Shown: positions 8,308 through 59,849 of the stretch, one piece after another
Layout: every line of letters starts with the position of its first letter
Position numbering within the stretch: the first letter of the stretch is position 1
Source: a virus
Strand: one strand, 5' to 3'
Length of the DNA: 64,000 bases
IMG/VR virus record: IMGVR_UViG_3300025789_001553
Coordinates: 18,477-82,476 of that record
Position numbers and translations under genes: made by a program
The notes under the pieces: generated by a model
The model's database searches: none
The model's input: only the letters and a program-made list of their open reading frames with translations
Told to the model about the DNA's origin: nothing

Positions 8308-8309
8308 AC

Positions 8310-8340: not shown

Positions 8341-8363
8341 ATTTTATATATTATAATAATAAA

Positions 8364-26532: not shown

Positions 26533-26533
26533 A

Positions 26534-27229: not shown

Positions 27230-27230
27230 A

Positions 27231-43773: not shown

Positions 43774-44298
43774 TTATACGTGTCTCCAGTATTGGAAAGC
43801 TAACTTAACCGTAAATGCTTCTGTTGGTTTACCAGCACCAGCATTATCATAACCAATTGAGCCAATAGATACTGGATATACACCGTATAGTTTATAGGTG
43901 TTAAGTACGTTTTGACTTTCATCGATTAAATCAAGTTGAATTAGTCTATCTGGACCGCGTAGTGAGAGGTTACCAGTGCTTGTAGCATCGTCAAATACAT
44001 TGTTAATTTGCCAATCTTCAAGCTTTTTACGAATAACGCCTTTAAGGTCATTATAGAACTTAACTTCCCATCCTTCTGAACCTGTATAATCAACTGTACC
44101 AGGCACATTGAACTTTAGTCCCATGTAAGGTACCTGTTGGTTTTGAATTGTACGGTCCGGAAGATTTTTTGTTGTGATATAAACGAAATCATCTTCGTTG
44201 AACGTATCTTGACCAATCGAACGCACTCTCATCATGAAATCACGAGCGAAACCGCGTTCTTGTGCTACCCTGTAGAAGTCTTGTATTGTCTGTGCCAT
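43774..44298 (-). CDS. Major tail tube protein (gp19-like)
   Basis: Follows the sheath; LPDRTI..QQVPYMG..F.VPG, W.VKFYND, YKLYGVYP, FQYW. Confidence 0.85.
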   Translation of the reverse strand: MAQTIQDFYRVAQERGFARDFMMRVRSIGQDTFNEDDFVYITTKNLPDRTIQNQQVPYMGLKFNVPGTVDYTGSEGWEVKFYNDLKGVIRKKLEDWQINNVFDDATSTGNLSLRGPDRLIQLDLIDESQNVLNTYKLYGVYPVSIGSIGYDNAGAGKPTEAFTVKLAFQYWRHV

Positions 44299-44318
44299 GT
44301 TAAATATTTAGGTTGAGA

Positions 44319-46676
44319 TTATAATAACTCGTTAAAGTTTTGCGATGTCTTAGTAGCATAGAAGTTTACCAAGATAAACTCTGCTGTACGAACTGGCTTA
44401 ATATAGATGTCAACAACTAATGTGTTATCGTCAACTACGCTTGGCGTGTTGTTCGTAGAATTACATACTATTAAGTAATCGTATAAACCTTGAGTGTTTT
44501 TAGCTAATTCAAATACAGGTGTTAATGTGTTAATAACTCTGCTTTGTGTGAATGTTGTATTAGGTTCAAACACGAAGTATTTTAATGTTTGTAATGCAGA
44601 CTTTTCTAAGAATAAGAATAGACGGCGAACATTAATACGGTCAAACGCACTTGGGTTCTTCATAAGCGTCTTTTGACCGAATACTGTATAACCTTCATTT
44701 GGGAAGTATACTACAGGATTAAGAGCTACTTTATAAAGTAAGTCGCGTTGTTTTTGCTGTGGGTTAACACCGATGTCAGCAAGACCGTTAATAATACCAC
44801 GGTTTAAACCAGCTGGTGCAGTCCAGAAATAATTATTAGCATCAGATGCTGTAATCATTGCTGCAGCAAAACCAGAGAATGGTAACCATACACCTTGGTT
44901 AGTGTAAGTGTCTTGAACCTTAGCCCAGTTAGCATATGCTGTAGCATAGCTTGTATTGAATGAACCGTAAAGGTTACGTAGAGGCCAGTAAATGTTAGAC
45001 GAGAAATTATTTGCCTTGTTGTCAAGGGTCTTGTAATTTTTACCTGTTACGAATACATGACGTAATGGGTCTGAAATAAAGAGGTGATCTTTACGACGGA
45101 ATTGAGCAAACTGCACGAACTTGTTTGTGATGTCAACCCAAGCATCAACTAAATCGTTGCTTACTGGATTACCATCTGAAGCTGTAAGTGCTGCTAATTC
45201 TGTTGTTAGTTCTGCCCATACTGCAGTGTCATCATACTCTGTACCAGCACCTTCTACTGCTTGTACAGCAGCAATTGTTGATAGACCAGCATCAAGTGTG
45301 ATATCGACGTCTACTAACTCGTTGTTTTCAGCAGCATTGAGAACGTAGTCAAGTTTTGAACTTACATCGCCAATAATTTTTGCACTATTAAGTGGTAAGC
45401 TGTCTGAATATACGCCTAAAGCATAAAGCGAGTTAGCAGGCATAAACGAACCGTTTGCTTTAGCAAGATAAGCTGAAGCTACTGAGTAGAATGTATCACC
45501 GTCAGTACCAGTTGACTCTTTAAGTACTCTTACTGTCTTTGTCGAGTTACCGTTGTTGTCAAGCCAATTTACGAGAGAAGAAATATTTGGGTTAACATGT
45601 ACTTCAATTGTGCTCGAGCTGTTGTTAGCAACAGTCTGTATAAAGCTTGATTGAGGCGTACCACCATTAACGTCTTGAACTGTACGATTTACATATAGTG
45701 AACCTGCATAACCTTCTTGCAATACATACTGTAATGTGGTTGTATTAATCGAGAACGGTGAAGGGCGTAATTTAAATAATGATAAGATTAATGAATCGCT
45801 ATAACCTGTTTGAGCGATATTGTAAGTAGGAATGTTTTCAATATCGTGAGAAAGACTATTAATTACTGGTAATGGTGCAGCACTTAGTGTGAAACCAATA
45901 CGAGTTGTTGGAACTGTAATATAAACAGATGAATTAGTATCTGCATACTCACCATCAACAAAGTATGTGCTACCAATAGTTTGTACTGTAACCGCATCAT
46001 CAAAGTTAGATGTAGGATTATTGCTTAAAGCGTCAGCTAAGTTAAGATAATAGCCTTCGAAATTTTCGTTAATTGTTGTTTTAGCTGTGTTAACAACAAC
46101 GATACCAGCGTTACCGATATCGGTAACTACGTTTGAGCCGGAAACAACAAAGCTACTTAAACCTACATTACCTGTAGTAGCAGACCAGTTGATACCACCT
46201 TGAGAAATTTGTGTGTATTGATCTGAAGTTAATGCAACTAATGCAGGGGCACCAAAATAATAACCCTGAGCTGAGCTCAATGGAATTGTACCCGCTGTAG
46301 CAGCTGTAGCTGGATATGTCGTTGTATTGCCAGGAATTGGTAATACTGGAAATGCTAATGCACTATAATTGCTTGCTGTACCTTCACCTGTACCATCCCC
46401 GTAAGGAATACGAACTGCTTTGATCGTTGGATTATTACCAGCTGTAAATAACTGATTTACCGCATAATAAAAATAACGTTCCGCTGCATTTGTAGGTGTA
46501 CCGAAAACGGTTTGAAAATCGCTAAGAGAAGCCAACTCGACAATTTCATAAGTTGGGCCTTGAGGCGCAAAACCGGTTACTAAAACATTAGTACCGACTG
46601 GAGTTACTGCTCTTGTAGATAAATCAATTTCACGAATTTCTACACCTGGAGATTGGATAGTGCGTGTGGATGCCAT
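44319..46676 (-). CDS. Tail sheath protein (gp18-like)
   Basis: SPGVEIREID, APAGLNRG, FGQKT..SAFDRINVRRLF, FEPN, IKPVRTAEFI..NF. Confidence 0.95.
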   Translation of the reverse strand: MASTRTIQSPGVEIREIDLSTRAVTPVGTNVLVTGFAPQGPTYEIVELASLSDFQTVFGTPTNAAERYFYYAVNQLFTAGNNPTIKAVRIPYGDGTGEGTASNYSALAFPVLPIPGNTTTYPATAATAGTIPLSSAQGYYFGAPALVALTSDQYTQISQGGINWSATTGNVGLSSFVVSGSNVVTDIGNAGIVVVNTAKTTINENFEGYYLNLADALSNNPTSNFDDAVTVQTIGSTYFVDGEYADTNSSVYITVPTTRIGFTLSAAPLPVINSLSHDIENIPTYNIAQTGYSDSLILSLFKLRPSPFSINTTTLQYVLQEGYAGSLYVNRTVQDVNGGTPQSSFIQTVANNSSSTIEVHVNPNISSLVNWLDNNGNSTKTVRVLKESTGTDGDTFYSVASAYLAKANGSFMPANSLYALGVYSDSLPLNSAKIIGDVSSKLDYVLNAAENNELVDVDITLDAGLSTIAAVQAVEGAGTEYDDTAVWAELTTELAALTASDGNPVSNDLVDAWVDITNKFVQFAQFRRKDHLFISDPLRHVFVTGKNYKTLDNKANNFSSNIYWPLRNLYGSFNTSYATAYANWAKVQDTYTNQGVWLPFSGFAAAMITASDANNYFWTAPAGLNRGIINGLADIGVNPQQKQRDLLYKVALNPVVYFPNEGYTVFGQKTLMKNPSAFDRINVRRLFLFLEKSALQTLKYFVFEPNTTFTQSRVINTLTPVFELAKNTQGLYDYLIVCNSTNNTPSVVDDNTLVVDIYIKPVRTAEFILVNFYATKTSQNFNELL

Positions 46677-46732
46677 AATAGTTAAGTTTCTATTATTATT
46701 TAGGAGTTTTTAGCTCTGAAACTTAGACTTTA

Positions 46733-47317
46733 TTAAAGTAATTGAGAGTTTAACTGGCTAAATGCGAATGTAAAAGAAGATTCTATCTGCTCTCCATCCC
46801 TGTAATTATAAGTAATTTCTCCAAGATTTGTAATAAAAGCTTTTATGTAATCCCACTGTATTACTTTGTTGTTATACTCATCTAAACCGTAAACAGTAAT
46901 ATTGGTTTGATAGTTATTTAAATCAGCAATTTTTTCTGGAGATATTAAACCGTCGTAATTGTATGTACTTTGACTTGAATCATTGATAACATTTAACCAA
47001 TACCACAATACCCACCAGTTATTAAATCCATTGTCAACAGTAAAATTAACTGTTATTGGTTTATAAGCTGATCTTGTATAACTTGTAAATTTAGCAGTTT
47101 GAGCAGAGTACGGTATATCTACTTCTGCTACAACTGTTTCAGGTACTACTGTACCGTAAATTGAATACTGTAAAGAGTCTAAATTAAGAGAATTAGATGC
47201 TCGACTGTTTTGATATGTTTTGTTGACAGTCTTTAATATAGGTGGCAAGTTCAAGACAAGTAAAAACTTGTCTTTTCTATTTTTATTAAGAATCGATTGC
47301 TGAACTGTATCGCTCAT
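46733..47317 (-). CDS. Tail completion/tube terminator (gp3-like)
   Basis: YKPITVNFTVD..FNNW..LWYWL, AFITNLGEI.Y, FTFAF. Confidence 0.7.
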   Translation of the reverse strand: MSDTVQQSILNKNRKDKFLLVLNLPPILKTVNKTYQNSRASNSLNLDSLQYSIYGTVVPETVVAEVDIPYSAQTAKFTSYTRSAYKPITVNFTVDNGFNNWWVLWYWLNVINDSSQSTYNYDGLISPEKIADLNNYQTNITVYGLDEYNNKVIQWDYIKAFITNLGEITYNYRDGEQIESSFTFAFSQLNSQLL

Positions 47318-47324
47318 CTAACAC

Positions 47325-48452
47325 TTACTTACGGAAGTGTTTGTTATTGATAATGTAAAATTCCTTAATAACGCTTTGTTCAGCTGCTACTTTTTGTGTA
47401 TTAGCAGGTGTAACCTGATTCATTATCTGACCCGCAGCAGGCTTTTTTCTTGCGTTATCGTTTTGAGCTTTTTCAATTTCAGCTAATTTATTCAGTGCAT
47501 AGTCAAGAATACCTTTACGGTCTCTGCTTTGTACTTTGCTGAGTTGTGCTGCTACAGCGTCTATAGCTTTTTTAGCATCCCCCACATTAACACGACCACT
47601 ACCTGCAGGTGCTGGTGCAGCAGGTGCTGCAGGTAGTGGTGCGGGTGCAGCTGCTGGAGCTGGAGTTGCAGAAGCTGTATTAGCTGTCGGTGCTGGTGCA
47701 TCTGCTGCAGGTGCTGTATTAGCAGCTGTTGCAGGTTTACCGGTTTGATTTAAATTCTTGTTTGTAATATCACCAGCTAAGCCAGTGTTTTGTTTTGCTC
47801 CTTGATAACCGTATTTAGCACCAGCTTTAAAGCTATGACCAAGTCCTTGTGCAGCACCACCAACAGCACCAACTGCTTGACCTAAGCCATTTGCAGTAGC
47901 GCCCGCAACTTGACCTACAGCTGCAGGTACATTAGCTAAACCATTAGCTAATTTAGTGCCATATTTCTGTATACCGCTTTTTAAATGTGAGCCTAATTGA
48001 CTAAGAAAACCAGGTTTCTTTTTTTGAGCTCCTGCTAAAGGGTATGTGGAATTTGCACCTGCAATATCAGAAGGATCCCCATTTGGGTTTACGTCTTCGT
48101 CTTCGAGTTTTTCTTCTTCTTTCTTTTTACCACGTGCAAAAGATTCAAATGCTAAGCAATAGTTTTTATCGCTTGTAGTATCTAAATGTTTTAAAACCTT
48201 TTCAATACACATTACTGTGAGTTTAATATCATTATCTTGCTCGTCTGCGTTTTCTTCTATAATTGAGCGACCACCTTGACGTGATTCTATAGCATGCTCA
48301 AAAGCCAAATATGTACTTTCAGGCAGTACCTGTGAAATAATATTAAACTCTTTTAAAATAGTCTCAGGAGAAGAACTCTCTACGAGTGATTCAATTGAAT
48401 TATTTTCTTGTACTACGTTATATTTTTCGGCTAAAAGCTTTACGTTTGGCAT
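47325..48452 (-). CDS. Hypothetical late protein, Ala/Pro/Gly-rich, KLLAEKY leader
   Basis: ORF; TAAGTA at 48465-48470. Confidence 0.65.
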   Translation of the reverse strand: MPNVKLLAEKYNVVQENNSIESLVESSSPETILKEFNIISQVLPESTYLAFEHAIESRQGGRSIIEENADEQDNDIKLTVMCIEKVLKHLDTTSDKNYCLAFESFARGKKKEEEKLEDEDVNPNGDPSDIAGANSTYPLAGAQKKKPGFLSQLGSHLKSGIQKYGTKLANGLANVPAAVGQVAGATANGLGQAVGAVGGAAQGLGHSFKAGAKYGYQGAKQNTGLAGDITNKNLNQTGKPATAANTAPAADAPAPTANTASATPAPAAAPAPLPAAPAAPAPAGSGRVNVGDAKKAIDAVAAQLSKVQSRDRKGILDYALNKLAEIEKAQNDNARKKPAAGQIMNQVTPANTQKVAAEQSVIKEFYIINNKHFRK

Positions 48453-48460
48453 AATGTATC

Positions 48461-49522
48461 TTAATACTTACGCAAATAGAACGTATTTCTCTGTGAATCA
48501 AATCCAATCTCTATATTACTTGTACTAAGCTTACGAGGATGACCGGATTTAATTTTATTTATATCCAATCCATAACGCATGATAATTTCATTAGCTTTAT
48601 TATGGGTTATCGGGCCAGCTCCAAATTCCTTCTTTTTAAGGTTATGTACTGGTACAGTATCGTCTTTCTTTTTCTTGTGCATTTGAGCTACTATACCAAT
48701 ATTTCTAATTTTATCAGAACCCAAGCTACCTAATTTACTCATACCCGCACCGAGTTGTTGATGGCGAGGACCTCGTTTATTAGTAATACCCATAAACGAT
48801 TTAAAATTCATTTCCTGTAAACGCTGTACACTATCTAATGATAATTTCTTATCTTTCTTTGCAAGTATACCTTGTACAAGTCTTTCCACGTCTCCTGATC
48901 TACGTAGTTTTTTGAAAGCAAGGTTTTCAGGTGAAAACTCTCCACCTTTGTCTAAACCAGCTTTTCTGAGTTCCATGAACTTTTCTTTAGCTTTTTCAGC
49001 ACATTCTACATCACATTCATCACTTAAAGCAAAATTAATCATATCTAACATCGCTTGTTTCTTTTTACCAACAAGTGAAAGATCTATTTCTGCTTTTTCT
49101 TTAGTTGCGTTTGGTTTCTTTAACCAATCATCGTTTTTAAGGGAATACACTCCAGTAGAATGGTGCGGTTCATTTATATCTTGTATATAAACCTCTACGT
49201 CATAACCTTTTATAGTAATATCACGTGTTGTGTTCCAAACTGTTTTTTTAGCATTAAAATAGTCTTTAAGTAATTCAGTCTCAACTTTATACTCAGTAAA
49301 ATCTGTGATAATGTGTAAATCAAAATCACTATACTTTGTGTAGTTAAAGTTTGCTAATGAACCAGTTAAAGTAATATCTTCAACATCAACTTCAATATCA
49401 ATTGTATCTAAAAATGCTTGAGCAATTTCCAGGAGCTTATCTTTAATTTCTGGCTTTAGCTTGCCATTTTCCCACAATTGCGGGTTAAGCTCATTATGAA
49501 ACTCAAACGTAAGGTTCTCCAT
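48461..49522 (-). CDS. Pol-beta superfamily nucleotidyltransferase
   Basis: LTGSLANFNYTKYSDFDLHI (GS..DxD) and YDVEVY third carboxylate. Confidence 0.8.
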   Translation of the reverse strand: MENLTFEFHNELNPQLWENGKLKPEIKDKLLEIAQAFLDTIDIEVDVEDITLTGSLANFNYTKYSDFDLHIITDFTEYKVETELLKDYFNAKKTVWNTTRDITIKGYDVEVYIQDINEPHHSTGVYSLKNDDWLKKPNATKEKAEIDLSLVGKKKQAMLDMINFALSDECDVECAEKAKEKFMELRKAGLDKGGEFSPENLAFKKLRRSGDVERLVQGILAKKDKKLSLDSVQRLQEMNFKSFMGITNKRGPRHQQLGAGMSKLGSLGSDKIRNIGIVAQMHKKKKDDTVPVHNLKKKEFGAGPITHNKANEIIMRYGLDINKIKSGHPRKLSTSNIEIGFDSQRNTFYLRKY

Positions 49523-49538
49523 GTAAGTTATTACTTAC

Positions 49539-50042
49539 TTAAAACTTATAACTTAGCCTTGTAAAAAAGTCTCCAATAAAGTACAAAGCTTCGTGTATAC
49601 GTCTACGTACCCAACGTACTGGTTTAGTATAAAAGAAATATCTATTAACCCAGCGACTTCTTTCATATAGCATTTCTGCTTTTACTTGATTCCATTTCTC
49701 AATACGTTCAGTATTGTCTACCTTTTCAAACTTAGATACTTCAATTACATCGATTTGCCCTTTAGTGAATGTTGCAGTAAACTCTACCCAACAATCATTA
49801 TTACCTATTTTTTCATTTGGTACATATTCGTAAAATTTAAGGTTACCATGGTAATTTTGATCTTCCCAATTCTTTTCGGATACTTGCAAAAGCAGTCTAC
49901 CGTTTTCGATTTTGTAATTAGCTAAACACTCTATTAACCCCTTAGCTTGAAATGACGTACAGTTATTGGGTAATCCCTCTTCCCACATTTCGTCTGTCCA
50001 AGGCAATTTATCTTTTACTGTTATTGTATCAAACATTCCCAT
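49539..50042 (-). CDS. Phage hypothetical protein (MGMFD type)
   Basis: MGMFDTI..FQAK..YHG..KFY..W.EF.A.F..G. Confidence 0.65.
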   Translation of the reverse strand: MGMFDTITVKDKLPWTDEMWEEGLPNNCTSFQAKGLIECLANYKIENGRLLLQVSEKNWEDQNYHGNLKFYEYVPNEKIGNNDCWVEFTATFTKGQIDVIEVSKFEKVDNTERIEKWNQVKAEMLYERSRWVNRYFFYTKPVRWVRRRIHEALYFIGDFFTRLSYKF

Positions 50043-50095
50043 ACAGTTAATATAGTGTATTTTTGCTAATAATCCATAAGTATTTAGTCTATAGT

Positions 50096-50485
50096 ATGCC
50101 TAACGAACTCAAACTGTTATCAGAAAAATATACTCAAATATTTAAAGAATATGATGCTTCGTGGTCAACCGGTGGTATGGGCGGAACAGCCTATGCAGGT
50201 AGCGAGCAAATGGCAGAAGATGAAGAAAGTGCATTAGACCCACTACAGCCAAGTACAGCTTTAAGTTCCCAACTCGTTGGTTTATTTGATCCGGTTACTT
50301 CTGAAGAAAAGAAACAAACCGACGAAGCTTTAAAAGAACTTGAAACAGTTTTAAATAAAATTACAAAAGATATAGAAAGCTGGCAACACAAATACACAAA
50401 GCTCGGGGCAACCGATACTGTTTCAAGAGAACAATTATTTCAATATATAGCTAAATCAGTTTTAGGTATAAAAAAATTAGACTGA
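50096..50485 (+). CDS. Hypothetical late protein with KLLSEKY leader
   Basis: TAAGTA at 50077-50082, ATG 50096. Confidence 0.65.
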   Translation: MPNELKLLSEKYTQIFKEYDASWSTGGMGGTAYAGSEQMAEDEESALDPLQPSTALSSQLVGLFDPVTSEEKKQTDEALKELETVLNKITKDIESWQHKYTKLGATDTVSREQLFQYIAKSVLGIKKLD

Positions 50486-50486
50486 T

Positions 50487-52130
50487 ATGTTTTCATTTAA
50501 ACAATTTTTTCTTTTAAATGAAGGTGGTGCTGGTGGACATATGCTACACCCGCTCAACTTACCTGAAATTAAAACAGGTAAAGAGCTTTTAGAATTATAT
50601 GAAAAGTCAGCTCATTATCTTGCACTAAAAGGTGCTCCGGTTAAAATTGATGGTACTAACGTTAGTGTGCGGTTAGTAGATACTGAACACGGTAAAGAGT
50701 TTGCTATCTACAGGGGCGCTAAAATAGACATGGAAGGACCTCCCGCTACACTCTCTTATTTAAATACCCGTTTTGCGGAAAACCCAGGTGCAATTAAATC
50801 ATACGAGCAGGTATTAAATATTTTTAACAAAGCCTTACCACAGACAACAAGAGAGCTGAAAGAGTTAGGCTTGTATAATGATCCAAATATTTTCTTTAAT
50901 ACTGAATTTGTAGCTGGTACTTCTAATATAATAGGGTACAATAATAAATTTTTAGCTATTCATTATCCTGCTAAAATTACAGAAAAGTTTAGCGCTAAAA
51001 AAGGTACAAAGAGTTATGGTAGTGAGCATTTACCTTTTAATGCTGATGTTTTAAATGCATATGCTAAAAAAGTTAATGCAGTAGCACAAGAATTTGGTTT
51101 TAATGTTATACATCAGTCTATAGCAAAAATGACTGGTAAGCCTAATTTTAATGCAGCGTTAAGTTCAGAATTAACTATTAATGGTAAAACTAAAACTTTA
51201 AAACAGTGGTTAAGTACAGCTGTTAATCCGGCTAACAAAGTAATTAAAAAATTGGGTGGTGCTAAACCAGTAGCTGGTATTAATCAGGCTCTGTATTTAG
51301 ATGTAGTACAAAACGGGGTTGATATTAACAGTATAGTTGCACCAGAAAGTTTACCGGTTGCTACAAATTGTATTGTATTTTGGCATGCAACAAGATTACT
51401 TGGTAAAGCTATACTTGATGCAATGGACTCAGATTTAGGTAAACCTTCTCAACAAGAAGGTGTTGTTATAAACAACCCAGCTGTATCAGCTTATCAATTT
51501 AAAATAACAGGCGACTTCTTTGTAAGAAACGCTGAAGCAAGCCCCTACAGAAAAGAACCTACTGGTCCTATTAAAACAGCTGTCATAACTTATGGTAGAT
51601 TTAATCCGCCAACTGTTGGACATCAAGCTTTGTTACAAACATTATCTCAAACTGGTGCACAAAATAAAGCTCAATTAACAGCTATATTTCCTTCTCATAC
51701 AATTAATAGAGACAACCCGTTACCTTTTGATCTTAAAGCACAGATATTACAAACTATATCCCCTAAGAACGTTCAAGTATTACCAGACGGTAAGACTCTA
51801 ATGGCAGTGCTTAGTTTCTTAAGTAAAAACGGATATAACAGGGTTATTCATATAGCTGGTTCAGATCGTTTACCTGAATATGAGCGTTTAATTAAACAAT
51901 ACGTAAATAAGCCAGATGCTCATGGAGATATTGCATACAATATACCAGACTACACGTTTGTAAGCTCTGGGGATAGAGATCCAGACGCTGAAGGTGTTAC
52001 TGGTATGAGTGCTTCTAAAGTAAGAGCAGCTGCTCGTGCTAATGATTATAAGTCTTTTAGTGCTGGTATAGCTCAAGGCTTACCCGAACAACTAAAGCAA
52101 TTAGTATTCAATACTATTAAAAATAGTTAA
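50487..52130 (+). CDS. Fusion: ATP-dependent ligase-like domain plus HxGH (cytidylyl/NMN-adenylyl) transferase domain
   Basis: KIDGTN, TEF, QEGVVI, FKI ligase motifs; TYGRFNPPTVGH, NPL, AGSDR, RDPD..GMSASKVR. Confidence 0.75.
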   Translation: MFSFKQFFLLNEGGAGGHMLHPLNLPEIKTGKELLELYEKSAHYLALKGAPVKIDGTNVSVRLVDTEHGKEFAIYRGAKIDMEGPPATLSYLNTRFAENPGAIKSYEQVLNIFNKALPQTTRELKELGLYNDPNIFFNTEFVAGTSNIIGYNNKFLAIHYPAKITEKFSAKKGTKSYGSEHLPFNADVLNAYAKKVNAVAQEFGFNVIHQSIAKMTGKPNFNAALSSELTINGKTKTLKQWLSTAVNPANKVIKKLGGAKPVAGINQALYLDVVQNGVDINSIVAPESLPVATNCIVFWHATRLLGKAILDAMDSDLGKPSQQEGVVINNPAVSAYQFKITGDFFVRNAEASPYRKEPTGPIKTAVITYGRFNPPTVGHQALLQTLSQTGAQNKAQLTAIFPSHTINRDNPLPFDLKAQILQTISPKNVQVLPDGKTLMAVLSFLSKNGYNRVIHIAGSDRLPEYERLIKQYVNKPDAHGDIAYNIPDYTFVSSGDRDPDAEGVTGMSASKVRAAARANDYKSFSAGIAQGLPEQLKQLVFNTIKNS

Positions 52131-52151
52131 ATTTTAATTTAATTTAAACAT

Positions 52152-52186
52152 AAAAAAAGGCTAACGTTTTACTCGTTAGCCTTTTT
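52152..52186. terminator. Bidirectional terminator
   Basis: A7-GGCTAACG-TTTTACT-CGTTAGCC-T5 between convergent genes. Confidence 0.85.
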
Positions 52187-52205
52187 AATTTTAAGCGACT
52201 AATTC

Positions 52206-55200
52206 TTATTTGAATGTCGCGACTGAAGCTAATGCAAGGTAAGTCGAGCTACCTGTCTTCGTTAACGATACTGTGTATACGTCAACCGAATTTGCATTAC
52301 CTGAACTTGGAGCTGTACCACCCTGCCACTTTGGCGTTACTGCACTACCGTCAACTTGTAGAGCTGTCTGATAGTAAGGTGTATTGCCGTTAGTTGTAAG
52401 TAGCGCAATTGTAATTGTCTGACCTGTCGACATTATACTGTTTAGTGTAGTACCGCTGTTACCACGAATATTTAACGTCCAATTATTAGCATTACTATTT
52501 GTGTAGTATTGTATACCTTGTGTTAATACATCGAAGTTAGTTGTACTTGATGGAGCCGAAGCTGTGTTTGTTGTACCTTCAAGTACTGAGTTTTCAGTTA
52601 CATAACCTGTTGCTGTAATATTAGCAAACGTTACATTACTTGTAGTATTTAAGGTTTGGTTAGCGCCCGGGCCTGAATAACCGGACCAGCCAGATGTACC
52701 AGAGTAGCCTGAAGTACCGCTAAAGCCACTATAGCCTGATGTACCAGAATAACCTGATATACCAGAGTAGCCTGAAGTACCGCTAAAGCCTGAGATACCA
52801 CTGTAACCACTGAAGCCGCTTATACCGCTGTAACCAGACGTACCAGAGTAGCCTGAGGTACCGCTAAAGCCTGAGAAGCCAGATGTACCAGAGTAGCCTG
52901 AAGTACCGCTAAAGCCACTATAGCCTGATGTACCAGAATAACCTGATATACCAGAGTAGCCTGAAGTACCGCTAAAGCCTGAGATACCACTGTAACCACT
53001 GAAGCCGCTTATACCGCTGTAACCAGACGTACCAGAGTAGCCTGAAGTACCGCTAAAGCCACTATAGCCTGATGTACCAGAATAACCTGATATACCGCTA
53101 TAACCGCTAAAACCGGAAGTACCGCTAAAGCCTGAGTAACCAGATGTACCGCTGAAGCCACTAAAGCCTGATGTACCAGAATAACCTGAAGTACCGCTAA
53201 AGCCTGAGAAGCCAGAAGTACCAGAGTAGCCCGAAATACCAGAGTATCCCGAGAAGCCTGAATAACCAGATGTACCAGAATAACCCGAAGTGCCAATGCC
53301 AGAATAACCTGAGTAACCAGAAGCACCTGTAGCACCTTGACCGATTGGTGAACGTAATACTGAATAGTTAGTAGTACCGTTATATATGAATGTAGCAGAT
53401 ACTGACGACGAACTTGTTGAGTATGCGTAAACCTGTGTTAAGATTCTGTCTGCTGCATTTAGTGTTGTAATACTATTTGTAGCATAAGATACTTTTTGAT
53501 ATGTTGTAGTTGTATCTGTTACCGCACCAGAATCTGCACTTAATATTAATGTACCTGTACTGCTTGTTGCATTGACCCAAGTATATACTTGGAATACAAA
53601 GTTTGCTGAATTTGAATTTACTTTACGGAAAAATTCAATATCCCACAGACCTGCAGGTATTTCTGTTAGCCCAGGTTCACCAGCTGGTGTTAAATAACCA
53701 TCAATTAATACTGGGCTTGCAAGTGAGCTATTACCGGTAGATACTACAACAACGTCATCGTTTACTGAACCACCGCCTGGTTGTAATGTCAAACTTTCAT
53801 AAGATGTTTGATCACTATCTGTTTCATTGAAGAAGTATGTTCTACCGTATACCGATGCGCCTGTTTGACCAGACCAACCAGATGTACCAGAGTAGCCACT
53901 GATACCGCTAAAGCCACTAATACCAGAGAAGCCGCTAAAGCCTGAAGTACCGCTAAAGCCGCTAAAGCCTGATGTACCAGAATAACCTGATGTACCAGAG
54001 AAGCCTGAGAAGCCAGATGTACCACTATAACCGCTTATACCGGAATAACCGCTAAAGCCTGAGATACCGCTAAAGCCTGAGATACCGCTATAACCGCTTA
54101 TACCGCTAAAGCCTGATGTACCAGAATAACCTGATGTACCAGAGAAGCCTGAGAAGCCAGATGTACCAGAGTAACCTGATGTACCACTATAACCGCTAAA
54201 GCCGCTTATACCGCTAAAGCCTGAAGTACCAGAATAGCCTGAAATACCGCTAAAGCCTGATGTACCAGAATAACCTGATGTACCAGAGAAGCCTGAGAAG
54301 CCAGATGTACCAGAGTAACCTGATGTACCACTATAACCGCTAAAGCCGCTTATACCGCTAAAGCCTGAAGTACCAGAATAGCCTGAAATACCGCTAAAGC
54401 CTGATGTACCAGAATAACCTGATGTACCAGAGAAGCCTGAGAAGCCAGATGTACCAGAGTAACCTGATGTACCACTATAACCGCTAAAGCCTGAAGTACC
54501 AGAGTAGCCTGAAATACCAGACCAACCTGAGAAGCCGGAAGTACCGTCATTACCAGCAAATCCTTGTACGCCAGGATCACCTTGAGGACCACTATAGCCA
54601 CTGTAACCTGACCAACCGCTAATACCGCTATAGCCTGAGATACCACTATAACCGGACCAACCAGATATACCACTATAGCCACTTATACCAGAATACCCAC
54701 TTATACCAGAATAACCTGAAATACCGCTATAACCTGATATACCTATATATCCGCTATAACCTGAGATACCACTGTAACCGGAAATACCTGAATAACCACT
54801 GTACCCGCTTATACCACTATAACCAGAATAACCTGACGAAGCAGAAGCACCGTTAGCGCCAGAGTAACCAGAATAGCCTGAGTAGCCTTGCAAGTTTGCG
54901 CCACTCATTGAAATTGTACCTGTAACTTCGAAGTTACCGTCAAAGTGAATTGTGTTGCCTACTTGTGTTACTAAGCTATTACCAAGTGTTTGATTACTTG
55001 TCCATAATGCAAGGTAACCGCTTGTACCGTTGTTTGTAGAACCGATTTGAGTTGCTGGATATTCAACTACAACACCTGTTGAATCGCTTGTAGCGATTAA
55101 CATTGGCTTAATGAACGAGCCACTTAATGAAGGAGCTGTATCTGTTAATGCACCAGCTGTTTGATCAGATAGGTAATAACCGTAACCATCTGTTAAACCA

Positions 55201-57614
55201 GAGAGGTTTGAAATTTGACCGTTGTATACGATTGTAAACTGACTTCCTGTTGCGTCTTGTACGATACCAATTGCATCAACAGTAGAAATACTGTCTGCTT
55301 TTGCACGTAGGTACGAACCACTCTGATCTCTGTAAATTACAGTACCAGGTGTAAAGTCGTTTGAATATGGAATTGTTAATTGTAATGTTGCGTCAGCACC
55401 ACTGATACCAGACCAACCAGAGTAGCCTGAGTAACCAGAAATACCTGACCAACCGCTAATACCGGACCAGCCGCTATAGCCACTGATACCAGAGTAACCT
55501 GAAATACCAGACCAGCCAGAGTAACCGGAAATACCAGATATACCTGACCAACCGCTAATACCGCTAAAGCCGGACCAGCCACTTATGCCAGACCAACCGG
55601 ATATACCAGACCAGCCTGACCAACCTGAAATACCGGAGTAGCCAGAAGTACCGCTGAAGCCGCTAATGCCAGACCAGCCACTATAACCGCTAATACCTGA
55701 CCAACCAGACCAGCCTGAAATACCAGACCAGCCACTAAAGCCAGAAATGCCTGACCAACCTGAGGTACCGCTAAAGCCTGAAATACCAGACCAGCCAGAA
55801 ATACCTGACCAACCTGAAATACCAGAGTAGCCTGATGTACCAGAGAAGCCTGAAATACCAGACCAGCCGCTATAACCGCTAATACCAGACCAACCGGAGT
55901 AGCCAGAAATACCTGACCAACCGCTTATGCCAGACCAACCTGAGGTACCAGAGAAGCCTGAAATACCGCTCCAACCTGAAATACCGCTAAAGCCTGACCA
56001 ACCAGAAATACCGCTATAGCCAGATGTACCGCTAAAGCCCGATATACCGGAGTAGCCTGAGAAGCCACTAATACCGCTCCAGCCCGAAGTGCCAGAGAAA
56101 CCGCTAATACCAGACCAGCCAGAGATACCTGACCAACCTGAAATACCGGACCAGCCGCTATAACCAGACGTACCAGAGTAACCGCTGTAACCACTAATAC
56201 CAGAGAAGCCGCTAAAGCCTGATGTACCAGAATAGCCTGAAATACCGCTAAAGCCACTAATACCAGACCAGCCAGAAATACCGCTAAAGCCAGACCAGCC
56301 GCTAATACCTGACCAACCTGAAATACCGGACCAACCGGATATACCAGACCAACCAGAGAAGCCTGAGTCACCTTTTACTTGGCCAACGTTTGCCCATACA
56401 CCATTACCGTATACCCATAAATCGCCAGATGCTTCATCAATAACACCATTACCATTAACTGCGCTTGGGTAAGCTGTATTTAATGTTGTTTGAGGATCGA
56501 CTCCGACTGTAGGAACTGTACCAATAATAGTTACTGACGTACCATTTGTACCAGAGTAACCAGAGAAGCCTGAAATACCAGACCAACCTGAAATACCTGA
56601 CCAACCGGAGTAACCGCTAATACCGCTAAAGCCACTAATACCAGACCAGCCAGAAATACCTGACCAACCGCTTACGCCGCTATAACCAGAGAAGCCAGAA
56701 ATGCCTGACCAACCAGAGAAGCCTGAAATACCGCTAAAGCCTGAGAAGCCAGACGTACCACTGAAGCCTGAAATACCAGACCAGCCTGAGATACCACTCC
56801 AGCCACTAATACCAGACCAACCTGAAATACCGCTTACGCCAGACCAACCAGAGTAGCCTGAATAACCAGACCAACCAGAAATGCCTGACCAACCAGAGAA
56901 GCCTGAGGTACCAGAATAACCTGAAGTACCGCTAAAGCCTGAAATACCACTAAAGCCGCTAAAGCCTGATATACCAGACCAACCGGAAATACCAGAAATA
57001 CCAGACCAACCGGAAATACCGGACCAGCCTGACGTACCGCTGAAGCCAGAAATGCCTGACCAACCAGAGATACCACTAAAGCCTGAGAAGCCAGACGTAC
57101 CAGAATAACCCGAAATACCGCTCCAGCCTGATGTACCAGAATAACCGCTTATACCAGACCAGCCAGAAATACCTGACCAACCGCTTATGCCAGACCAACC
57201 AGAGATACCACTCCAGCCTGATGTACCGCTAAAGCCCGAAATACCGGACCAGCCTGAAATACCACTAAAGCCTGAGAAGCCAGATGTGCCTGAATAACCC
57301 GATTGTCCAGACCAACCTGAGAAGCCGCTGAAGCCAGAAATACCTGACCAACCAGACCAGCCTGAAATACCTGACCAACCAGAAATACCGCTCCAGCCTG
57401 AAAAGCCTGATGTACCGCTGTAACCAGATGTACCGCTAAAGCCAGATATACCGCTCCAGCCACTATAGCCAGAGATACCAGACCAGCCTGAGATACCAGA
57501 TACACCAGACCAGCCACTATAACCGGACACACCGGAACCAGAGTAACCAGAGAAACCTGATACACCGATTGGATTATAAACTGCAGAAAAAGCGCCTCGA
57601 TTGGGTAATGACAT
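52206..57614 (-). CDS. Giant fibre protein with Ser-Gly-X tripeptide repeats (1802 aa)
   Basis: Four SG[YFWIT] blocks separated by globular domains; C-terminal KWQGGTAP..GNA.SVDVY fibre-type domain; TATAAATA at 57638-57645. Confidence 0.8.
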   Translation of the reverse strand: MSLPNRGAFSAVYNPIGVSGFSGYSGSGVSGYSGWSGVSGISGWSGISGYSGWSGISGFSGTSGYSGTSGFSGWSGISGWSGISGWSGWSGISGFSGFSGWSGQSGYSGTSGFSGFSGISGWSGISGFSGTSGWSGISGWSGISGWSGISGWSGISGYSGTSGWSGISGYSGTSGFSGFSGISGWSGISGFSGTSGWSGISGWSGISGISGWSGISGFSGFSGISGFSGTSGYSGTSGFSGWSGISGWSGYSGYSGWSGVSGISGWSGISGWSGISGWSGISGFSGTSGFSGFSGISGFSGWSGISGFSGYSGVSGWSGISGWSGISGFSGISGYSGWSGISGWSGISGFSGYSGTNGTSVTIIGTVPTVGVDPQTTLNTAYPSAVNGNGVIDEASGDLWVYGNGVWANVGQVKGDSGFSGWSGISGWSGISGWSGISGWSGFSGISGWSGISGFSGISGYSGTSGFSGFSGISGYSGYSGTSGYSGWSGISGWSGISGWSGISGFSGTSGWSGISGFSGYSGISGFSGTSGYSGISGWSGFSGISGWSGISGFSGTSGWSGISGWSGISGYSGWSGISGYSGWSGISGFSGTSGYSGISGWSGISGWSGISGFSGTSGWSGISGFSGWSGISGWSGWSGISGYSGWSGISGFSGTSGYSGISGWSGWSGISGWSGISGWSGFSGISGWSGISGISGYSGWSGISGYSGISGYSGWSGISGWSGISGYSGYSGWSGISGADATLQLTIPYSNDFTPGTVIYRDQSGSYLRAKADSISTVDAIGIVQDATGSQFTIVYNGQISNLSGLTDGYGYYLSDQTAGALTDTAPSLSGSFIKPMLIATSDSTGVVVEYPATQIGSTNNGTSGYLALWTSNQTLGNSLVTQVGNTIHFDGNFEVTGTISMSGANLQGYSGYSGYSGANGASASSGYSGYSGISGYSGYSGISGYSGISGYSGYIGISGYSGISGYSGISGYSGISGYSGISGWSGYSGISGYSGISGWSGYSGYSGPQGDPGVQGFAGNDGTSGFSGWSGISGYSGTSGFSGYSGTSGYSGTSGFSGFSGTSGYSGTSGFSGISGYSGTSGFSGISGFSGYSGTSGYSGTSGFSGFSGTSGYSGTSGFSGISGYSGTSGFSGISGFSGYSGTSGYSGTSGFSGFSGTSGYSGTSGFSGISGYSGISGFSGISGFSGYSGISGYSGTSGFSGFSGTSGYSGTSGFSGFSGTSGFSGFSGISGFSGISGYSGTSGWSGQTGASVYGRTYFFNETDSDQTSYESLTLQPGGGSVNDDVVVVSTGNSSLASPVLIDGYLTPAGEPGLTEIPAGLWDIEFFRKVNSNSANFVFQVYTWVNATSSTGTLILSADSGAVTDTTTTYQKVSYATNSITTLNAADRILTQVYAYSTSSSSVSATFIYNGTTNYSVLRSPIGQGATGASGYSGYSGIGTSGYSGTSGYSGFSGYSGISGYSGTSGFSGFSGTSGYSGTSGFSGFSGTSGYSGFSGTSGFSGYSGISGYSGTSGYSGFSGTSGYSGTSGYSGISGFSGYSGISGFSGTSGYSGISGYSGTSGYSGFSGTSGYSGTSGFSGFSGTSGYSGTSGYSGISGFSGYSGISGFSGTSGYSGISGYSGTSGYSGFSGTSGYSGTSGWSGYSGPGANQTLNTTSNVTFANITATGYVTENSVLEGTTNTASAPSSTTNFDVLTQGIQYYTNSNANNWTLNIRGNSGTTLNSIMSTGQTITIALLTTNGNTPYYQTALQVDGSAVTPKWQGGTAPSSGNANSVDVYTVSLTKTGSSTYLALASVATFK
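52690..53080. repeat. ~2 near-exact copies of a 189-bp unit inside the fibre gene
   Basis: CAGATGTACCAGAGTAGCCTGAAG recurs at 52691 and 52880 with identical continuation. Confidence 0.75.
54103..54491. repeat. ~2.7 exact copies of a 144-bp unit inside the fibre gene
   Basis: CCGCTAAAGCCTGATGTACCAGAATAACC at 54103, 54247 and 54391. Confidence 0.85.
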
Positions 57615-57656
57615 AAATTTATTGGGTTATTACAAATTATTTATATCTTTTAAGTG

Positions 57657-57685
57657 GGCTTTTTAATAATTTATTATAAAAAGCC
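57657..57685. terminator. AT-rich hairpin, possible terminator
   Basis: GGCTTTTT...AAAAAGCC. Confidence 0.45.
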
Positions 57686-57727
57686 TTAATTTAGTTTTAA
57701 ACTAAATATATCCCGAACAGCTTAAGA

Positions 57728-59848
57728 TTAGAAGTACATTTGATACCAAGTCGGTACACCACCCATTACCCCTGCATATACCCAAGTGATAGGTTGAGCT
57801 CCAAATTGTCCACCGAGCGGAACATAAGCTGCAATATAAGAAGCACCTTGACCAAATGGATATACTTGACCACCACCTTGGAATTGTAGTACAGCTACTT
57901 GTCCTGAGGCTGGTTTAAATATTAAGTAAGCTACTCCAGCCGGGGTTGAAGCTGTACCAGCTCCTGGATCCCACGTACCAGCACTGGTAGCTGTAAAAGT
58001 AAATCCTGAATAATTTTGTGATGCACCTACAGAAGACCAATTAGTATCGCCAGGTGTTACAATTGTATATACAGTACCCGGAACAAAATAACCGGCACTA
58101 ACTATATTAGTTATTGTGACACAAGGAGCACTAATAACATCCCCCACGTTTGGGCTTGAAGGAAATTCAACTACTATACCATACGTACTATTAGTGTGTA
58201 TTGGTCCATCATTTACAATAAGTGTTTTAGTACCACTACTAAACTGTTTACCGTATACAGTTTGAGAACTTAACGTTAAAGGCGAATTGCTATATAACCC
58301 TTCAACATTCCCAGTTAATGTATATGCAGTCCAATAATTATCAGCTTTTGTGCTTACAACTATAACATCAGAATAGTTAATAGATCCACTTCCTGTACCT
58401 GCTGCACCAGAATAACCTGATATACCGCTTGCACCTGCAGTACCAGAGTAACCTGATATACCGCTATAACCAGAAGCACCATTGGTACCGTTAGTACCAG
58501 AATAACCTGAGTAACCAGACTTACCTGAAAAACCTAAACCACTAAAACCGGATATACCAGACCAACCAGAATAGCCTGAAGTACCTGTAACTGATTTATT
58601 CCAAACAGCTGTATTAGTTAAAACTATACCTGGGTTGGTTGATGAAGCTAAAGCTACATATAAATTTTGACCGTTAGTAACAATGTCGTTAATACTATAT
58701 GTTTGAGTGTTGTCATATTGACCACGATAGTTGAAGCCTAAACTATCTATACCACTATAACCGGAGTAACCAGATATACCAGAGTAACCGGAAGTACCAT
58801 TTACACCTATTATACCGTTTATACCGGAATAACCACTAAAGCCTGAAAAACCAGAAATACCTGAATAACCGCTATAACCTGAAACACCGGAACCAGAATA
58901 ACCTGACCAACCACTATAACCACTCTTACCGGACATACCACTTATACCATTAGTACCATTTGTACCACTATAACCACTATAACCCGATACACCACTAACA
59001 CCATCGAAAACCGGTACACCACTTAAAAGGTATGTGCCAAGAATATTAAAATCACCATTAATAGTTGTGGTGGCGTCTATTATAACATCTGGACCGCTAT
59101 CAAATATACTACTATTACCTAAAGAATGGGCACCAGTCCAACGTGCTAAATAACCACTGGTACCATTGTTTGTACTACCAATTATTACTCCAGGAAATTC
59201 AACAACCACACCAGTTGTTGTACCTGTACCAATTAATACCGGTTTAATGACACTACCACTTGCAGTAGGAGCATCTGTTGTTATTTGACCGGGTACTGTG
59301 TCTGAAAGGTAATAACATGTAGCATCTTCAATACCAGTTAGTCCTGAAATATAACCATTAATAACATATGTGAATTCGCTACTATTTGCAGATTGTACTA
59401 CCCCTATAACTTCAGAAGTATTAATATCGTTTGCTAAAGCTAAATCGTAACCACCTGTTGTTTTATAAATTGCTTGACCTGCACTAAACGAATTTGTATA
59501 TGTTACAGATTGGTTGTTAGCGTTAAAGCCTGAATAACCAGATATACCAGACCAGCCACTAACACCCGAATAACCAGAGTAACCAGATGTACCACCACCA
59601 CCTGTTGAAAATATGTGTAAGTCAGTATCTGTCGTACCTGTATCGTACCAGTATATATAAGGCACACCTGCAATAATAAGACGAACCTGTAATGATTGAA
59701 ATCTTATTGCTTGAGGTATTGCTGCATTAGCTGCTGCTTTTGCTGCGGTTTCGTTTGGTCCATAATAAGGACCTGACCACGTATCAACCGGTACCGGGTT
59801 GACTGGTTGTATACCAAATGGAATTTCTAAGCCTGGAGTTAATGCCAT
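57728..59848 (-). CDS. Fibre/decoration protein with SG-X repeats
   Basis: SGYSG blocks; shares a ~110-aa domain with the 1802-aa fibre. Confidence 0.7.
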   Translation of the reverse strand: MALTPGLEIPFGIQPVNPVPVDTWSGPYYGPNETAAKAAANAAIPQAIRFQSLQVRLIIAGVPYIYWYDTGTTDTDLHIFSTGGGGTSGYSGYSGVSGWSGISGYSGFNANNQSVTYTNSFSAGQAIYKTTGGYDLALANDINTSEVIGVVQSANSSEFTYVINGYISGLTGIEDATCYYLSDTVPGQITTDAPTASGSVIKPVLIGTGTTTGVVVEFPGVIIGSTNNGTSGYLARWTGAHSLGNSSIFDSGPDVIIDATTTINGDFNILGTYLLSGVPVFDGVSGVSGYSGYSGTNGTNGISGMSGKSGYSGWSGYSGSGVSGYSGYSGISGFSGFSGYSGINGIIGVNGTSGYSGISGYSGYSGIDSLGFNYRGQYDNTQTYSINDIVTNGQNLYVALASSTNPGIVLTNTAVWNKSVTGTSGYSGWSGISGFSGLGFSGKSGYSGYSGTNGTNGASGYSGISGYSGTAGASGISGYSGAAGTGSGSINYSDVIVVSTKADNYWTAYTLTGNVEGLYSNSPLTLSSQTVYGKQFSSGTKTLIVNDGPIHTNSTYGIVVEFPSSPNVGDVISAPCVTITNIVSAGYFVPGTVYTIVTPGDTNWSSVGASQNYSGFTFTATSAGTWDPGAGTASTPAGVAYLIFKPASGQVAVLQFQGGGQVYPFGQGASYIAAYVPLGGQFGAQPITWVYAGVMGGVPTWYQMYF

Positions 59849-59849
59849 G

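Follow-up and report, generated by a model that had tools for sequence, protein, structure and literature searches.

The DNA considered here is a stretch of 64,000 nucleotides, hereafter the window, that covers positions 18,477 to 82,476 of the IMG/VR virus record IMGVR_UViG_3300025789_001553. This source contig (G000) comprises 82,476 bases, is judged 39% complete and terminates within a terminase gene and, thus, the head module is missing from it. Positions 50487..52130 on the plus strand of the window encode a protein of 547 amino acids (aa), with an ATG start and no internal stops, which combines a short leader with two predicted nucleotidyltransferase domains, namely an N-terminal domain of the ligase type (covalent lysine nucleotidyltransferase) and a C-terminal (T/H)xGH domain of the PPAT/NMNAT class. 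The tail and fibre genes on both flanks are all located on the minus strand, so that this gene occupies the opposite strand within a structural block that also contains a tape-measure-like gene and glycosyltransferases (Table 1). A first-pass annotation, made from the letters and a list of open reading frames (ORFs), had placed the gene counter-strand inside the structural region, as is indeed the case, and had proposed a fusion of these two kinds of domain with a packaging-type leader. The analysis points, with a probability of roughly 0.45, to the precursor of a head-targeted, protease-trimmed cargo (ejection) protein with two cooperating enzymes.

The N-Terminal Ligase-Type Domain

Motifs I, III, IV, and V of the ligase and capping-enzyme superfamily follow each other in the N-terminal domain in the order typical of that superfamily. 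No substitution of K53, D55, G56, N58, E324, G325, or K339 is seen in any of the five alignments in which conservation was measured (A1–A5, with 36, 61, 17, 60, and 58 members); for E140, conservation is complete in A3 and reaches 90% or more in A1, A2, and A4. The motifs picked out in the first-pass annotation (KIDGTN, TEF, EGVVI, FKI, GRFNPPTVGH, NPL, and SAS) lie where it had located them and are no chance resemblance, as their key residues are conserved in 36, 61, and 60 relatives, with two amendments to their reading: motif V is present but carries one lysine where K-x-K is usual, and the HxGH signature is present with Thr in place of its first His. The family is large, with 99 relatives in a 90%-clustered protein set, at least 303 loci in IMG/VR, and, in a library clustered at 50% identity, 959 clusters at E ≤ 1e-3 and 275 at E ≤ 1e-30.

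The AlphaFold2 (AF2) model of the domain, built on 61 sequences (pLDDT 91.1, pTM 0.87), contains an extra helical/beta insert of ~125 residues (about 186–310) between motifs III and IV and has no OB fold, motif V being followed by a linker and then by the Rossmann-type HxGH domain. When this model was compared widely with VIA-align (50 matches listed), ranks 1–24 were all RNA or DNA ligases or capping enzymes (Z 8.5 to 5.2). The best match is T4 Rnl1 (9do4_B, Z 8.5, root-mean-square deviation 4.3, 185 residues aligned); three fungal Trl1 ligase domains reach Z 7.2, 7.0, and 6.9, and archaeal Rnl3, NgrRnl, Rnl2, and REL1 lie at Z 6.4–6.8, with DNA ligases at Z 5–7, capping enzymes at Z 4–5, and LigA (4glx) at rank 50 with Z 3.6. 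Best Z scores of 7–8 are commonplace for unmatched models and are not decisive alone; therefore, the case for a ligase fold rests on the coherent list of matches together with the conserved catalytic motifs. The fold search in BFVD returned the protein's own family (1e-41 to 3e-24) and then viral RNA ligases (1e-3 to 5e-2), with 14 annotated RNA ligases versus 1 DNA ligase among the 50 matches listed. The model and these two fold searches, carried out per domain, sustain the ligase-type fold that had been proposed from the sequence, and support the assignment of residues 13–352 to a divergent ligase/capping-type nucleotidyltransferase with a putative catalytic activity.

Several ATP-dependent RNA ligases share with this domain the nucleotidyltransferase fold and the lack of an OB domain, namely T4 Rnl1 (9do4), Trl1 (9r3w, 9qw7, 6n0t), Rnl3 (5d1o, 8uce), NgrRnl/Rnl5 (5cot), T4 Rnl2 (2hvq), and T. 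brucei REL1 (1xdn), which align with it over 180–209 residues at Z 8.5 to 6.4. As in these OB-less enzymes, the motif order I, III, IV, V is kept, together with the lysine, the two glutamates, and the motif V lysine. Unlike them, the domain has no sequence-level match, a single motif V lysine, the insert of ~125 residues, and a family-specific GG..GHMxHP block at its N-terminus. In place of a helical specificity domain, it is followed by a Rossmann-type HxGH enzyme, and the window protein bears a leader of head-targeting type. At the sequence level, residues 1–360 have no match in Pfam (E ≤ 1; the RNA_lig_T4_1 and RNA_ligase families included), NCBIfam, PHROGs, or the PDB sequences (phmmer), and tblastn of the N-terminal domain against 50,697 phage records gave one match only (E 0.3). 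In G000, PF09414 and PF01068 (ATP-dependent DNA ligase) are without match, neither an OB domain nor motif VI follows motif V, and PF01653 (LigA adenylation) is absent at this gene, with a sub-threshold score of 12.6 bits at G000:C1:9097-9315. No description of the ligase-like domain was found in the cyanophage and T4-like cytidylyltransferase and virion-proteome literature.

The C-Terminal (T/H)xGH Domain

Profiles and structural models clearly place the C-terminal domain among the HxGH enzymes of the PPAT/NMNAT class. It matches PHROG 3041 ('cytidyltransferase', 2e-38) and PHROG 395 (4.5e-29), and scores 16.9 bits with Pfam PF01467, under the 21-bit cut-off, a family for which 42 of the 61 relatives score E ≤ 0.01. 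Residues P374, H379, and R513 are invariant in the alignment of 60 relatives, and G370, F372, G378, G503, and A509 are at least 90% conserved. The Thr that replaces the first His of the signature (T376-V-G-H379) is also found in PPAT. In the full-length AF2 model (pLDDT 86.6), the loops at 476–481 and 498–505 are of low confidence. Foldseek against PDB yields 75 matches at E ≤ 1e-3 for this domain, with PPAT as the best (1.9e-5) and NadD, NadM, and human NMNAT within one order of magnitude of it overall (range 1.9e-5 to 4e-4). When the family profile is used against PDB sequences, NadM (2qjt, 1.5e-9) and an archaeal NMNAT (MJ0541, 1.5e-7) are the closest, and GMSASKVR aligns to the SATEFR/SGTEIR stretch of these two enzymes; the protein alone, with no profile, has no PDB sequence match by phmmer.

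Thus, the HxGH-class fold claimed in the first-pass annotation is upheld by PHROG, profile, and Foldseek results, and the GRFxPxxxGH signature, among whose bearers it counted NadM-type enzymes, does belong to this class, but the NadM identity itself is not established, as PPAT matches at least as well. PPAT, NadD, and NadM score alike as the substrate class of what is predicted to be an adenylyltransferase. The domain shares the fold and both signature motifs with PPAT (CoaD), NadM, NadD, and archaeal and human NMNAT, and differs from them in its size of ~185 residues and in being always tied to a ligase-like domain. Among phage records, tblastn finds the C-terminal part only, in 518 records that belong mostly to T4-like cyanophages, plus Pelagibacter and Methylophilales phages.

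Pairing of the Two Domains

The ligase-like and HxGH domains are an obligate pair. Across 81 loci (80 from IMG/VR and the window), they are fused in one protein in 61, with the HxGH domain first in 42 and the ligase-like domain first in 19. A separate HxGH gene lies within 3 kb in 13 further loci, mostly 0–3 nt away, and the partner is absent from the remaining seven, six of which have less than 300 nt of flank on one side. In the permuted forms, Pfam confirms the N-terminal HxGH domain. Such a permuted fusion is found in the Microcystis phage Mel-JY01 (hhalign probability 99.7%), where it is annotated only as 'cytidylyltransferase like protein'. That the domains occur fused in both orders and as tightly adjacent genes argues strongly for a common process in which both enzymes act.

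Some relatives carry further domains. In protein P0153, Amidase_2 (a peptidoglycan amidase) is inserted between the two domains, and a scan of the 58 long members (A5) revealed Tad3 in three, DUF192 in four, DUF5661 in three, and SET, GNAT, and ROS/MucR in one each. Tad3 (E 2.6e-30) is fused to the ligase-like domain, and was not found in an individual scan of 10 of the 58 long members; the SET domain is located in the L080 protein 6411-8726. Tad3 is an inhibitor of Thoeris ThsB, according to the available text of PMC13728456. The long relatives, which join Amidase_2, SET, GNAT, Tad3, DUF192, and ROS/MucR, resemble in this respect the polyvalent proteins of Iyer et al. 2017 (PMC5512222, as far as the text available goes), whereas the window protein has two domains only. 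In that same text, cytidylyltransferase, NMNAT, DNA ligase, and DUF192 are unmentioned, and RNA ligases appear only as not seen with 2H domains.

Leader, Maturation Protease and Virion Data

The leader is disordered in both AF2 models (pLDDT below 50 at residues 1–13 and 1–15) and resembles the N-termini of T4 internal proteins, which in the T4 record read MKTYQEFIAE in ipII and ipIII and MKTFKEF in ipI; leaders of relatives include MKTFKEYILNE. The accessible part of PMC9026906 describes T4 propeptides of 10–19 residues, in which residues 4 and 7 serve targeting and residues 8 and 10 processing, and that of PMC5694885 gives ITE-6 and LTE-619 as the cut sites of T4 Alt. The window protein displays this T4-type pattern, namely a putative propeptide of 10–19 residues with the features at positions 4 and 7 and the (L/I)-x-E ending, and is the only match to the strict pattern in G000. 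By eye, looser look-alikes were seen in the G000 ORFs 331-1071, 2559-3197, and 6742-7089 and in the window ORFs 47325-48452 and 50096-50485. The last two, whose proteins are otherwise unrelated, start with MPNVKLLAEKY (47325-48452, -) and MPNELKLLSEKY (50096-50485, +), a second shared leader type that ends in hydrophobic-x-Glu and is encoded beside the tail sheath gene and the fusion gene.

The junction between leader and GG..GHMxHP block was surveyed in 243 family proteins (P0001–P0244 minus P0100). A leader of 2–25 residues is present in 118, the block is internal in 43, Met stands directly before it in 40, and the search motif is lacking in 42. Ahead of the block, 160 proteins, among them the 43 with an internal block, have at least four residues. 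In these, Glu occupies P1 in 152, and Leu, Ile, or Val occupies P3 in 157 and P4 in 139; as the sequences are interrelated, such counts do not represent independent events. Since 40 proteins start with Met-GG, removal of Met and cutting after Glu would yield an identical N-terminus. A junction that is kept whether the block comes first or internally, and otherwise gives way to a start Met, looks like a protease site making one defined N-terminus, and the His block seems to need a free N-terminus, obtained by a protease cut or by translation start there.

Regarding the protease, the T4-type prohead protease PF03420 occurs in all five large carrier contigs, which encode more distant family members. 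Moreover, relatives of the C-terminal domain have been detected in virions. In the portion of PMC10665884 available, the cytidylyltransferase ORF154 of S-CREM2 is among the 52 proteins of the virion proteome, and its authors state that such enzymes are frequently detected in cyanophage virions; in that of PMC9146016, the cytidylyltransferase S-SZBM1_140 is among 30 virion proteins. The N-terminus of S-SZBM1_140, MRFRQFIIE-A, is leader-like.

Taken as a sequence feature, the packaging-type leader of the first-pass annotation is thus well founded, on its likeness to ipI, ipII, and ipIII, the family [LIV][LI]xE-GG junction, its disorder, and the mass spectrometry of virions containing relatives of the C-terminal domain. 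The likeness to T4 IPI, IPII, IPIII, and Alt comprises a short N-terminal sequence that would serve as a propeptide, with aromatics in positions 4 and 7 and a predicted cut site of the (L/I)-x-E type, together with a T4-type protease in the large carriers and virion-borne relatives of the C-terminal domain. The differences are that the window protein is a 60-kDa two-enzyme protein and not a small basic one, and that its leader has 12 instead of 10 residues. Furthermore, T4 internal proteins are processed cargo, whereas for the fusion family it is the sequence that points to cleavage and packaging.

A Sister Family in Cyanophages and Related Phages

In the ESM Atlas, the viral clusters nearest to the N-terminal domain (score 0.96–0.97) contain DUF6267 (PF19782) in 21–26% of their members, a match to be taken as a lead only given its low recognition value (1645 vs 2300). 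A DUF6267 gene lies directly upstream of the cytidyltransferase gene in P-HM2, S-MbCM100, P-TIM40, S-RIM2, and S-SZBM1. Pfam assigns the cyanophage upstream genes to DUF6267 at 1e-124 and 2e-93, and S-SZBM1_141 matches by hmmsearch at 4e-132; those of P-TIM40 (2e-77) and S-RIM2 (2e-23) were found by tblastn with the P-HM2 protein. In total, DUF6267 occurs in 466 phage records, with a host list that is nearly that of the cytidyltransferase. The pair (e.g., P-HM2 genes 162/163 and S-SZBM1 141/140) is a feature of T4-like cyanophages, pelagiphages, and Methylophilales phages, in which DUF6267 adjoins a homologue of the C-terminal domain of the window protein.

An alignment of 10 DUF6267 sequences contains H-x-x-H-x-x-D, KWDG, N..Y, H, EG, and K, in an order and spacing like those of the fusion family, and cyanophage proteins are among the BFVD fold matches of the N-terminal domain. 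At the level of profiles, the PF19782 model has no match in 61 family members (E ≤ 0.01) or in G000, G001, G002, G004, and G005 (E ≤ 1), and hhalign of the N-terminal domain alignment gives E 0.025 over 44 columns (motifs IV–V only) against the 10-sequence alignment and E 0.68 against a single DUF6267 protein. Since neither PF19782 nor hhalign connects the two families, DUF6267 is probably, judging by motif order and context, a sister family of the ligase-like domain and not the same family. Unlike the fusion gene, DUF6267 proteins are encoded by separate genes, and those read have no leader. DUF6267 is not named in the literature searched.

In the Pelagibacter phage HTVC008M, gp129 (L085 803-1465) is a P-loop kinase of the Zeta_toxin/AAA_33 type (3e-13), encoded directly upstream of a 596-aa cytidyltransferase protein that also has DUF5824.

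Operon, Promoter and Gene Neighbourhood

The fusion gene forms a two-gene operon with the upstream ORF, whose homologues lie directly 5' of the fusion gene in five of the 80 related loci (L003, L005, L007, L008, and L010), and which has no significant match in Pfam or PHROG searches. The sequence ATAAGTA is depleted in the window (7 copies vs 27.9 expected from shuffles) and, on comparison with the ORF list, five of the seven copies precede the start of a gene, mostly a virion gene, by no more than ~20 nt on the correct strand. This placement suggests that the gene is co-regulated late with the virion genes. The candidate late-promoter box differs from TATAAATA, the T4 late promoter consensus; the latter is not enriched in the window (7 copies vs 14 expected), with 0 copies ahead of the fusion gene. 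At the other end, the stem-loop between the convergent fusion and fibre genes is likely, from its 13-bp stem and A/T runs, a two-way terminator. Megablast of window positions 44000–60000 against phage records gave no matches.

Table 1. Features of the fusion gene, its operon, and the surrounding structural block (positions in the window).
Feature	Position	Strand	Basis or remark
Leader/putative propeptide MFSFKQFFLLNE, residues 1–12	50487..50522	+	F4, F7, then L10-N-E12
Block GGAGGHMLHPLN, residues 13–24, predicted mature N-terminus	50523..50558	+	H18, M19, H21, P22 invariant
Predicted ligase-type (covalent lysine nucleotidyltransferase) domain, residues 13–352	50523..51542	+	AF2 model, VIA-align, BFVD
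Motif I KIDGTN, residues 53–58	50643..50660	+	K53 is the predicted nucleotidyl-accepting lysine
Motif III-like NTEFV, residues 138–142 (E140)	50898..50912	+	Conservation
Motif IV QQEGVVI, residues 322–328 (E324, G325)	51450..51470	+	Conservation
Motif V-like QFKITGDFF, residues 337–345 (single lysine K339)	51495..51521	+	K339 and G342 invariant
Interdomain linker, residues 353–363	51543..51575	+	pLDDT <50 at 353–359, full-length model
Predicted (T/H)xGH nucleotidyltransferase domain (PPAT/NMNAT class), residues 364–547	51576..52127	+	PHROG, Foldseek, profile
GRFNPPTVGH, (T/H)xGH signature, residues 370–379	51594..51623	+	Nucleotide-binding signature
RDNPLPF, residues 408–414		+	C-terminal domain motif
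GMSASKVR, second HxGH-class signature (S-x-x-x-x-R), residues 506–513	52002..52025	+	R513 invariant
ATAAGTA box, candidate promoter element (late type) of the operon	50076..50082	+	14 nt before the ATG at 50096
Upstream ORF, 130 aa, starts MPNELKLLSE	50096..50485	+	Stop 1 nt ahead of the fusion-gene ATG
Stem-loop, 13 bp, A/T runs either side	52154..52186		Between convergent fusion gene and fibre gene
Tube-like genes (two)	43774-44298 and 46733-47317	-	Same structural block
Tail sheath	44319-46676	-	Flank of the fusion gene
Collagen-like fibre genes (1802 aa, 706 aa)	52206-57614 and 57728-59848	-	Adjoining the fusion gene
Gene starts with ATAAGTA just upstream	20599, 29148, 43086, 50096, 60911	-, -, -, +, -	ORF list
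ATAAGTA near these gene starts	20616, 29154, 43092, 50076, 60925		Sequence

A 353-aa protein of the Pol-beta nucleotidyltransferase type (window 48461-49522, -; PF01909 1.3e-5, PHROG 36119 7e-55) is encoded 1 kb from the fusion gene, and six of the 80 loci, two of them in distant clades (L028 and L059), contain a homologue no more than 7 kb away from that gene; in PDB, phmmer found for it only the DrrA adenylyltransferase domain, at a non-significant E of 0.12. Two P-loop proteins of the AAA_28 (NadR-kinase) type are encoded at window 5272-5850 (+; 3.6e-10) and at 3238-3945 (-; 1.8e-10) of L174 (G000:C1), and might provide the HxGH domain with a mononucleotide. A QueF-like gene (QueF_N 1e-27) is present at window 5840-6760 (+), and radical-SAM (Fer4_12) and PTPS/QueD-like (6e-18) genes at L174 (G000:C1) 4431-5231 (-) and 5256-5717 (-); this gene content makes the synthesis of a 7-deazaguanine base by the source phage probable, perhaps for use in its own DNA. 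Two glycosyltransferase genes (PHROG 24687 and 2170) are followed downstream by three tandem paralogues of 224–231 aa (window 25858-27914, -), all of which start with MKIN(E/D)FFQKGYYINLD. Finally, a ClpP-like protein (window 17725-18288, +), which matches 'head maturation protease' PHROGs at 3.6e-16, is encoded among early/replication genes, far from the virion block, and is one possible prohead protease of the source phage.

Proposed Function and Alternative Explanations

According to the reading favoured here, the two-gene operon would be transcribed with the late virion genes, and residues 1–12 would act as a T4-type capsid-targeting propeptide ending in L-x-E, by which the protein is loaded into the prohead. 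The head-maturation protease would then cut after Glu12 to give the mature N-terminus GGAGGHMxHP, and the processed protein would be injected with the DNA. In the infected cell, K53 of the OB-less RNA-ligase-like domain would be charged with AMP by a nucleotide donor and would transfer it to a 5'-phosphate, so as to seal or adenylylate broken polynucleotide ends, RNA being likelier than DNA. The (T/H)xGH domain, in turn, would make an ADP-linked dinucleotide, with NAD+ as the leading candidate, and would furnish its partner with the adenylyl donor or cofactor, either afresh or by regeneration. The reading frame, the conserved motifs, both folds, the pairing, and the leader pattern are observed, whereas cleavage, packaging, injection, catalysis, and substrates are inferences, as is the injected repair or anti-defence enzyme that the first-pass annotation had suggested. 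The packaged-cargo reading is supported by the Amidase_2, Tad3, and other cargo-like fusions of relatives and by the late context of the gene.

Several observations weigh against this reading. Firstly, the genes most often found nearby in the 80 loci encode a primase, a helicase, an SbcC-like protein, GIY-YIG endonucleases, and the large terminase, and the setting among virion genes is limited to a close clade (L003, L005, L006, L007, L008, and L010). Secondly, the fold scores of the N-terminal domain are middling: Foldseek against PDB gives nothing at E ≤ 1e-3, with weak Rnl2, Rnl1, and Rnl3 rows among unrelated ones, and the profile of the domain has no match at E ≤ 10 among PDB sequences. 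Thirdly, PF03420 is found in none of five close contigs (G000 and four fragments, all 11–39% complete), and the sole protease seen on G000 is the ClpP-like one, which is the chief weakness of the reading for this particular phage. In addition, HxGH-first fusions start directly at the first strand of the enzyme and have no N-terminal leader, and the authors of PMC10665884 warn, in the text available, that abundant enzymes may co-purify with virions. The DUF6267 partner in S-SZBM1 (gene 141) is likewise without a leader, starting right at the His block, and is unnamed in the main text and tables of PMC9146016 as far as these are available. Since gene 141 is leaderless and unnamed there, it may be that split systems package the HxGH enzyme alone.

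The neighbours of the relatives would also suit a ligase that acts in the cytoplasm in replication or repair and fills the place of the 'missing' polynucleotide ligase of these T4-like phages, with the HxGH enzyme as cofactor supplier and an N-terminus that is an ordinary one or a structural element and no packaging signal. Consistent with it, the canonical ligases PF01068 and PF01653 are absent from five large carriers (one of them 100% and one 89% complete) and PF09414 and PF09511 from 15 carriers, the last being a weak negative, as PF09511 is silent in control genomes too. The cyanophage DUF6267 and cytidyltransferase pair sits between MazG/primase-helicase and nrd genes, and the leaderless DUF6267 of S-SZBM1 fits this explanation as well. 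However, the domain has neither an OB domain nor motif VI, and its best fold matches are RNA ligases. Furthermore, a replication ligase leaves aside that the hydrophobic-x-Glu junction persists at internal domains, with a start Met in its place in 40 proteins, and that the window gene shares both its surroundings and its ATAAGTA box with late virion genes; fusions with amidase or Tad3 suit a delivered cargo more than a part of the replisome. This explanation is considered unlikely.

An NAD+ counter-defence enzyme, delivered early against Thoeris or SIR2, would have both domains acting on NAD+ or related dinucleotides, for example by NMN adenylylation and a second adenylyl transfer via Lys-AMP. 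The closest PDB sequences to the family profile, NadM and the archaeal NMNAT, agree with such chemistry, as do the fusion of Tad3 to the ligase-like domain in three of the 58 long members and the two AAA_28 proteins encoded by G000, and the cyanophage enzyme is termed an NMNAT homologue in the text available of PMC10665884. On the other hand, the C-terminal domain of the window protein matches PPAT first and NadD and NadM equally, has TxGH as in PPAT, and is alone without a PDB sequence match; the Nampt-type gene PF04095, a partner in NAD+ salvage, occurs in 0 of 15 carriers, and polyvalent fusions may just join unrelated cargo. Moreover, no ligase-fold enzyme is known to take part in NAD+ synthesis, and counter-defence by this route appears distinctly unlikely.

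The unusual features of the N-terminal domain could instead reflect a nucleotidylating effector. Its target would be either a protein of host or phage, which would receive AMP or a different NMP, or a DNA end, which would be capped or blocked instead of joined, and the HxGH domain would make the donor. The single motif V lysine, the family-specific His-x-x-His-Pro block and the ~125-residue insert, not seen in the matched ligases, would fit such a role, as would the lack of a recognisable nucleic-acid-binding accessory domain and the Pol-beta-type neighbour in the window and in six of 80 loci. Nevertheless, a protein target has no positive evidence and every annotated structural neighbour joins or caps polynucleotides, which leaves this explanation improbable. 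T4 gp63 (Rnl1) has a second role in tail-fibre attachment, and an assembly helper of this kind, suggested by the top fold match to T4 Rnl1, by a BFVD row named 'RnlA RNA ligase and tail fiber attachment catalyst', and by the abutting 1802-aa and 706-aa fibre genes in the window and close clade, is very improbable, given that most of the 80 related loci have replication or terminase neighbours and that strict catalytic-motif conservation and obligate HxGH pairing would be left unexplained.

Within the packaged-cargo reading, a more far-reaching version can be conceived, in which the protein is a head-borne, self-contained, cofactor-recycling ligation machine and, together with DUF6267, represents the missing ligase of T4-like cyanophages and pelagiphages. 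In such a machine, the lysine would be charged from NAD+ or another ADP-linked dinucleotide and the HxGH domain would rebuild the donor from the released mononucleotide and ATP, so that ends could be joined or capped from the first seconds of infection, even while host NAD+ is being destroyed. This version is speculative and stands only a slim chance of being correct.

Biological Significance

If the packaged-cargo reading is true, T4-like phages of abundant aquatic bacteria would carry a nucleic-acid-joining enzyme and an adenylyl-cofactor synthetase in their heads, and the phages concerned would include, via the DUF6267 sister branch, cyanophages as well as SAR11 and Methylophilales phages. 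RNA/DNA end-repair or NAD+-chemistry enzymes would thereby join the short list of injected phage proteins, and the ligase superfamily would gain a new branch with an unusual N-terminal His block. Moreover, two adjacent core genes of cyanophages, whose present annotations are no more than 'hypothetical protein' and 'cytidyltransferase', would be given a function. Since the family is large, one biochemical study would annotate many genes.

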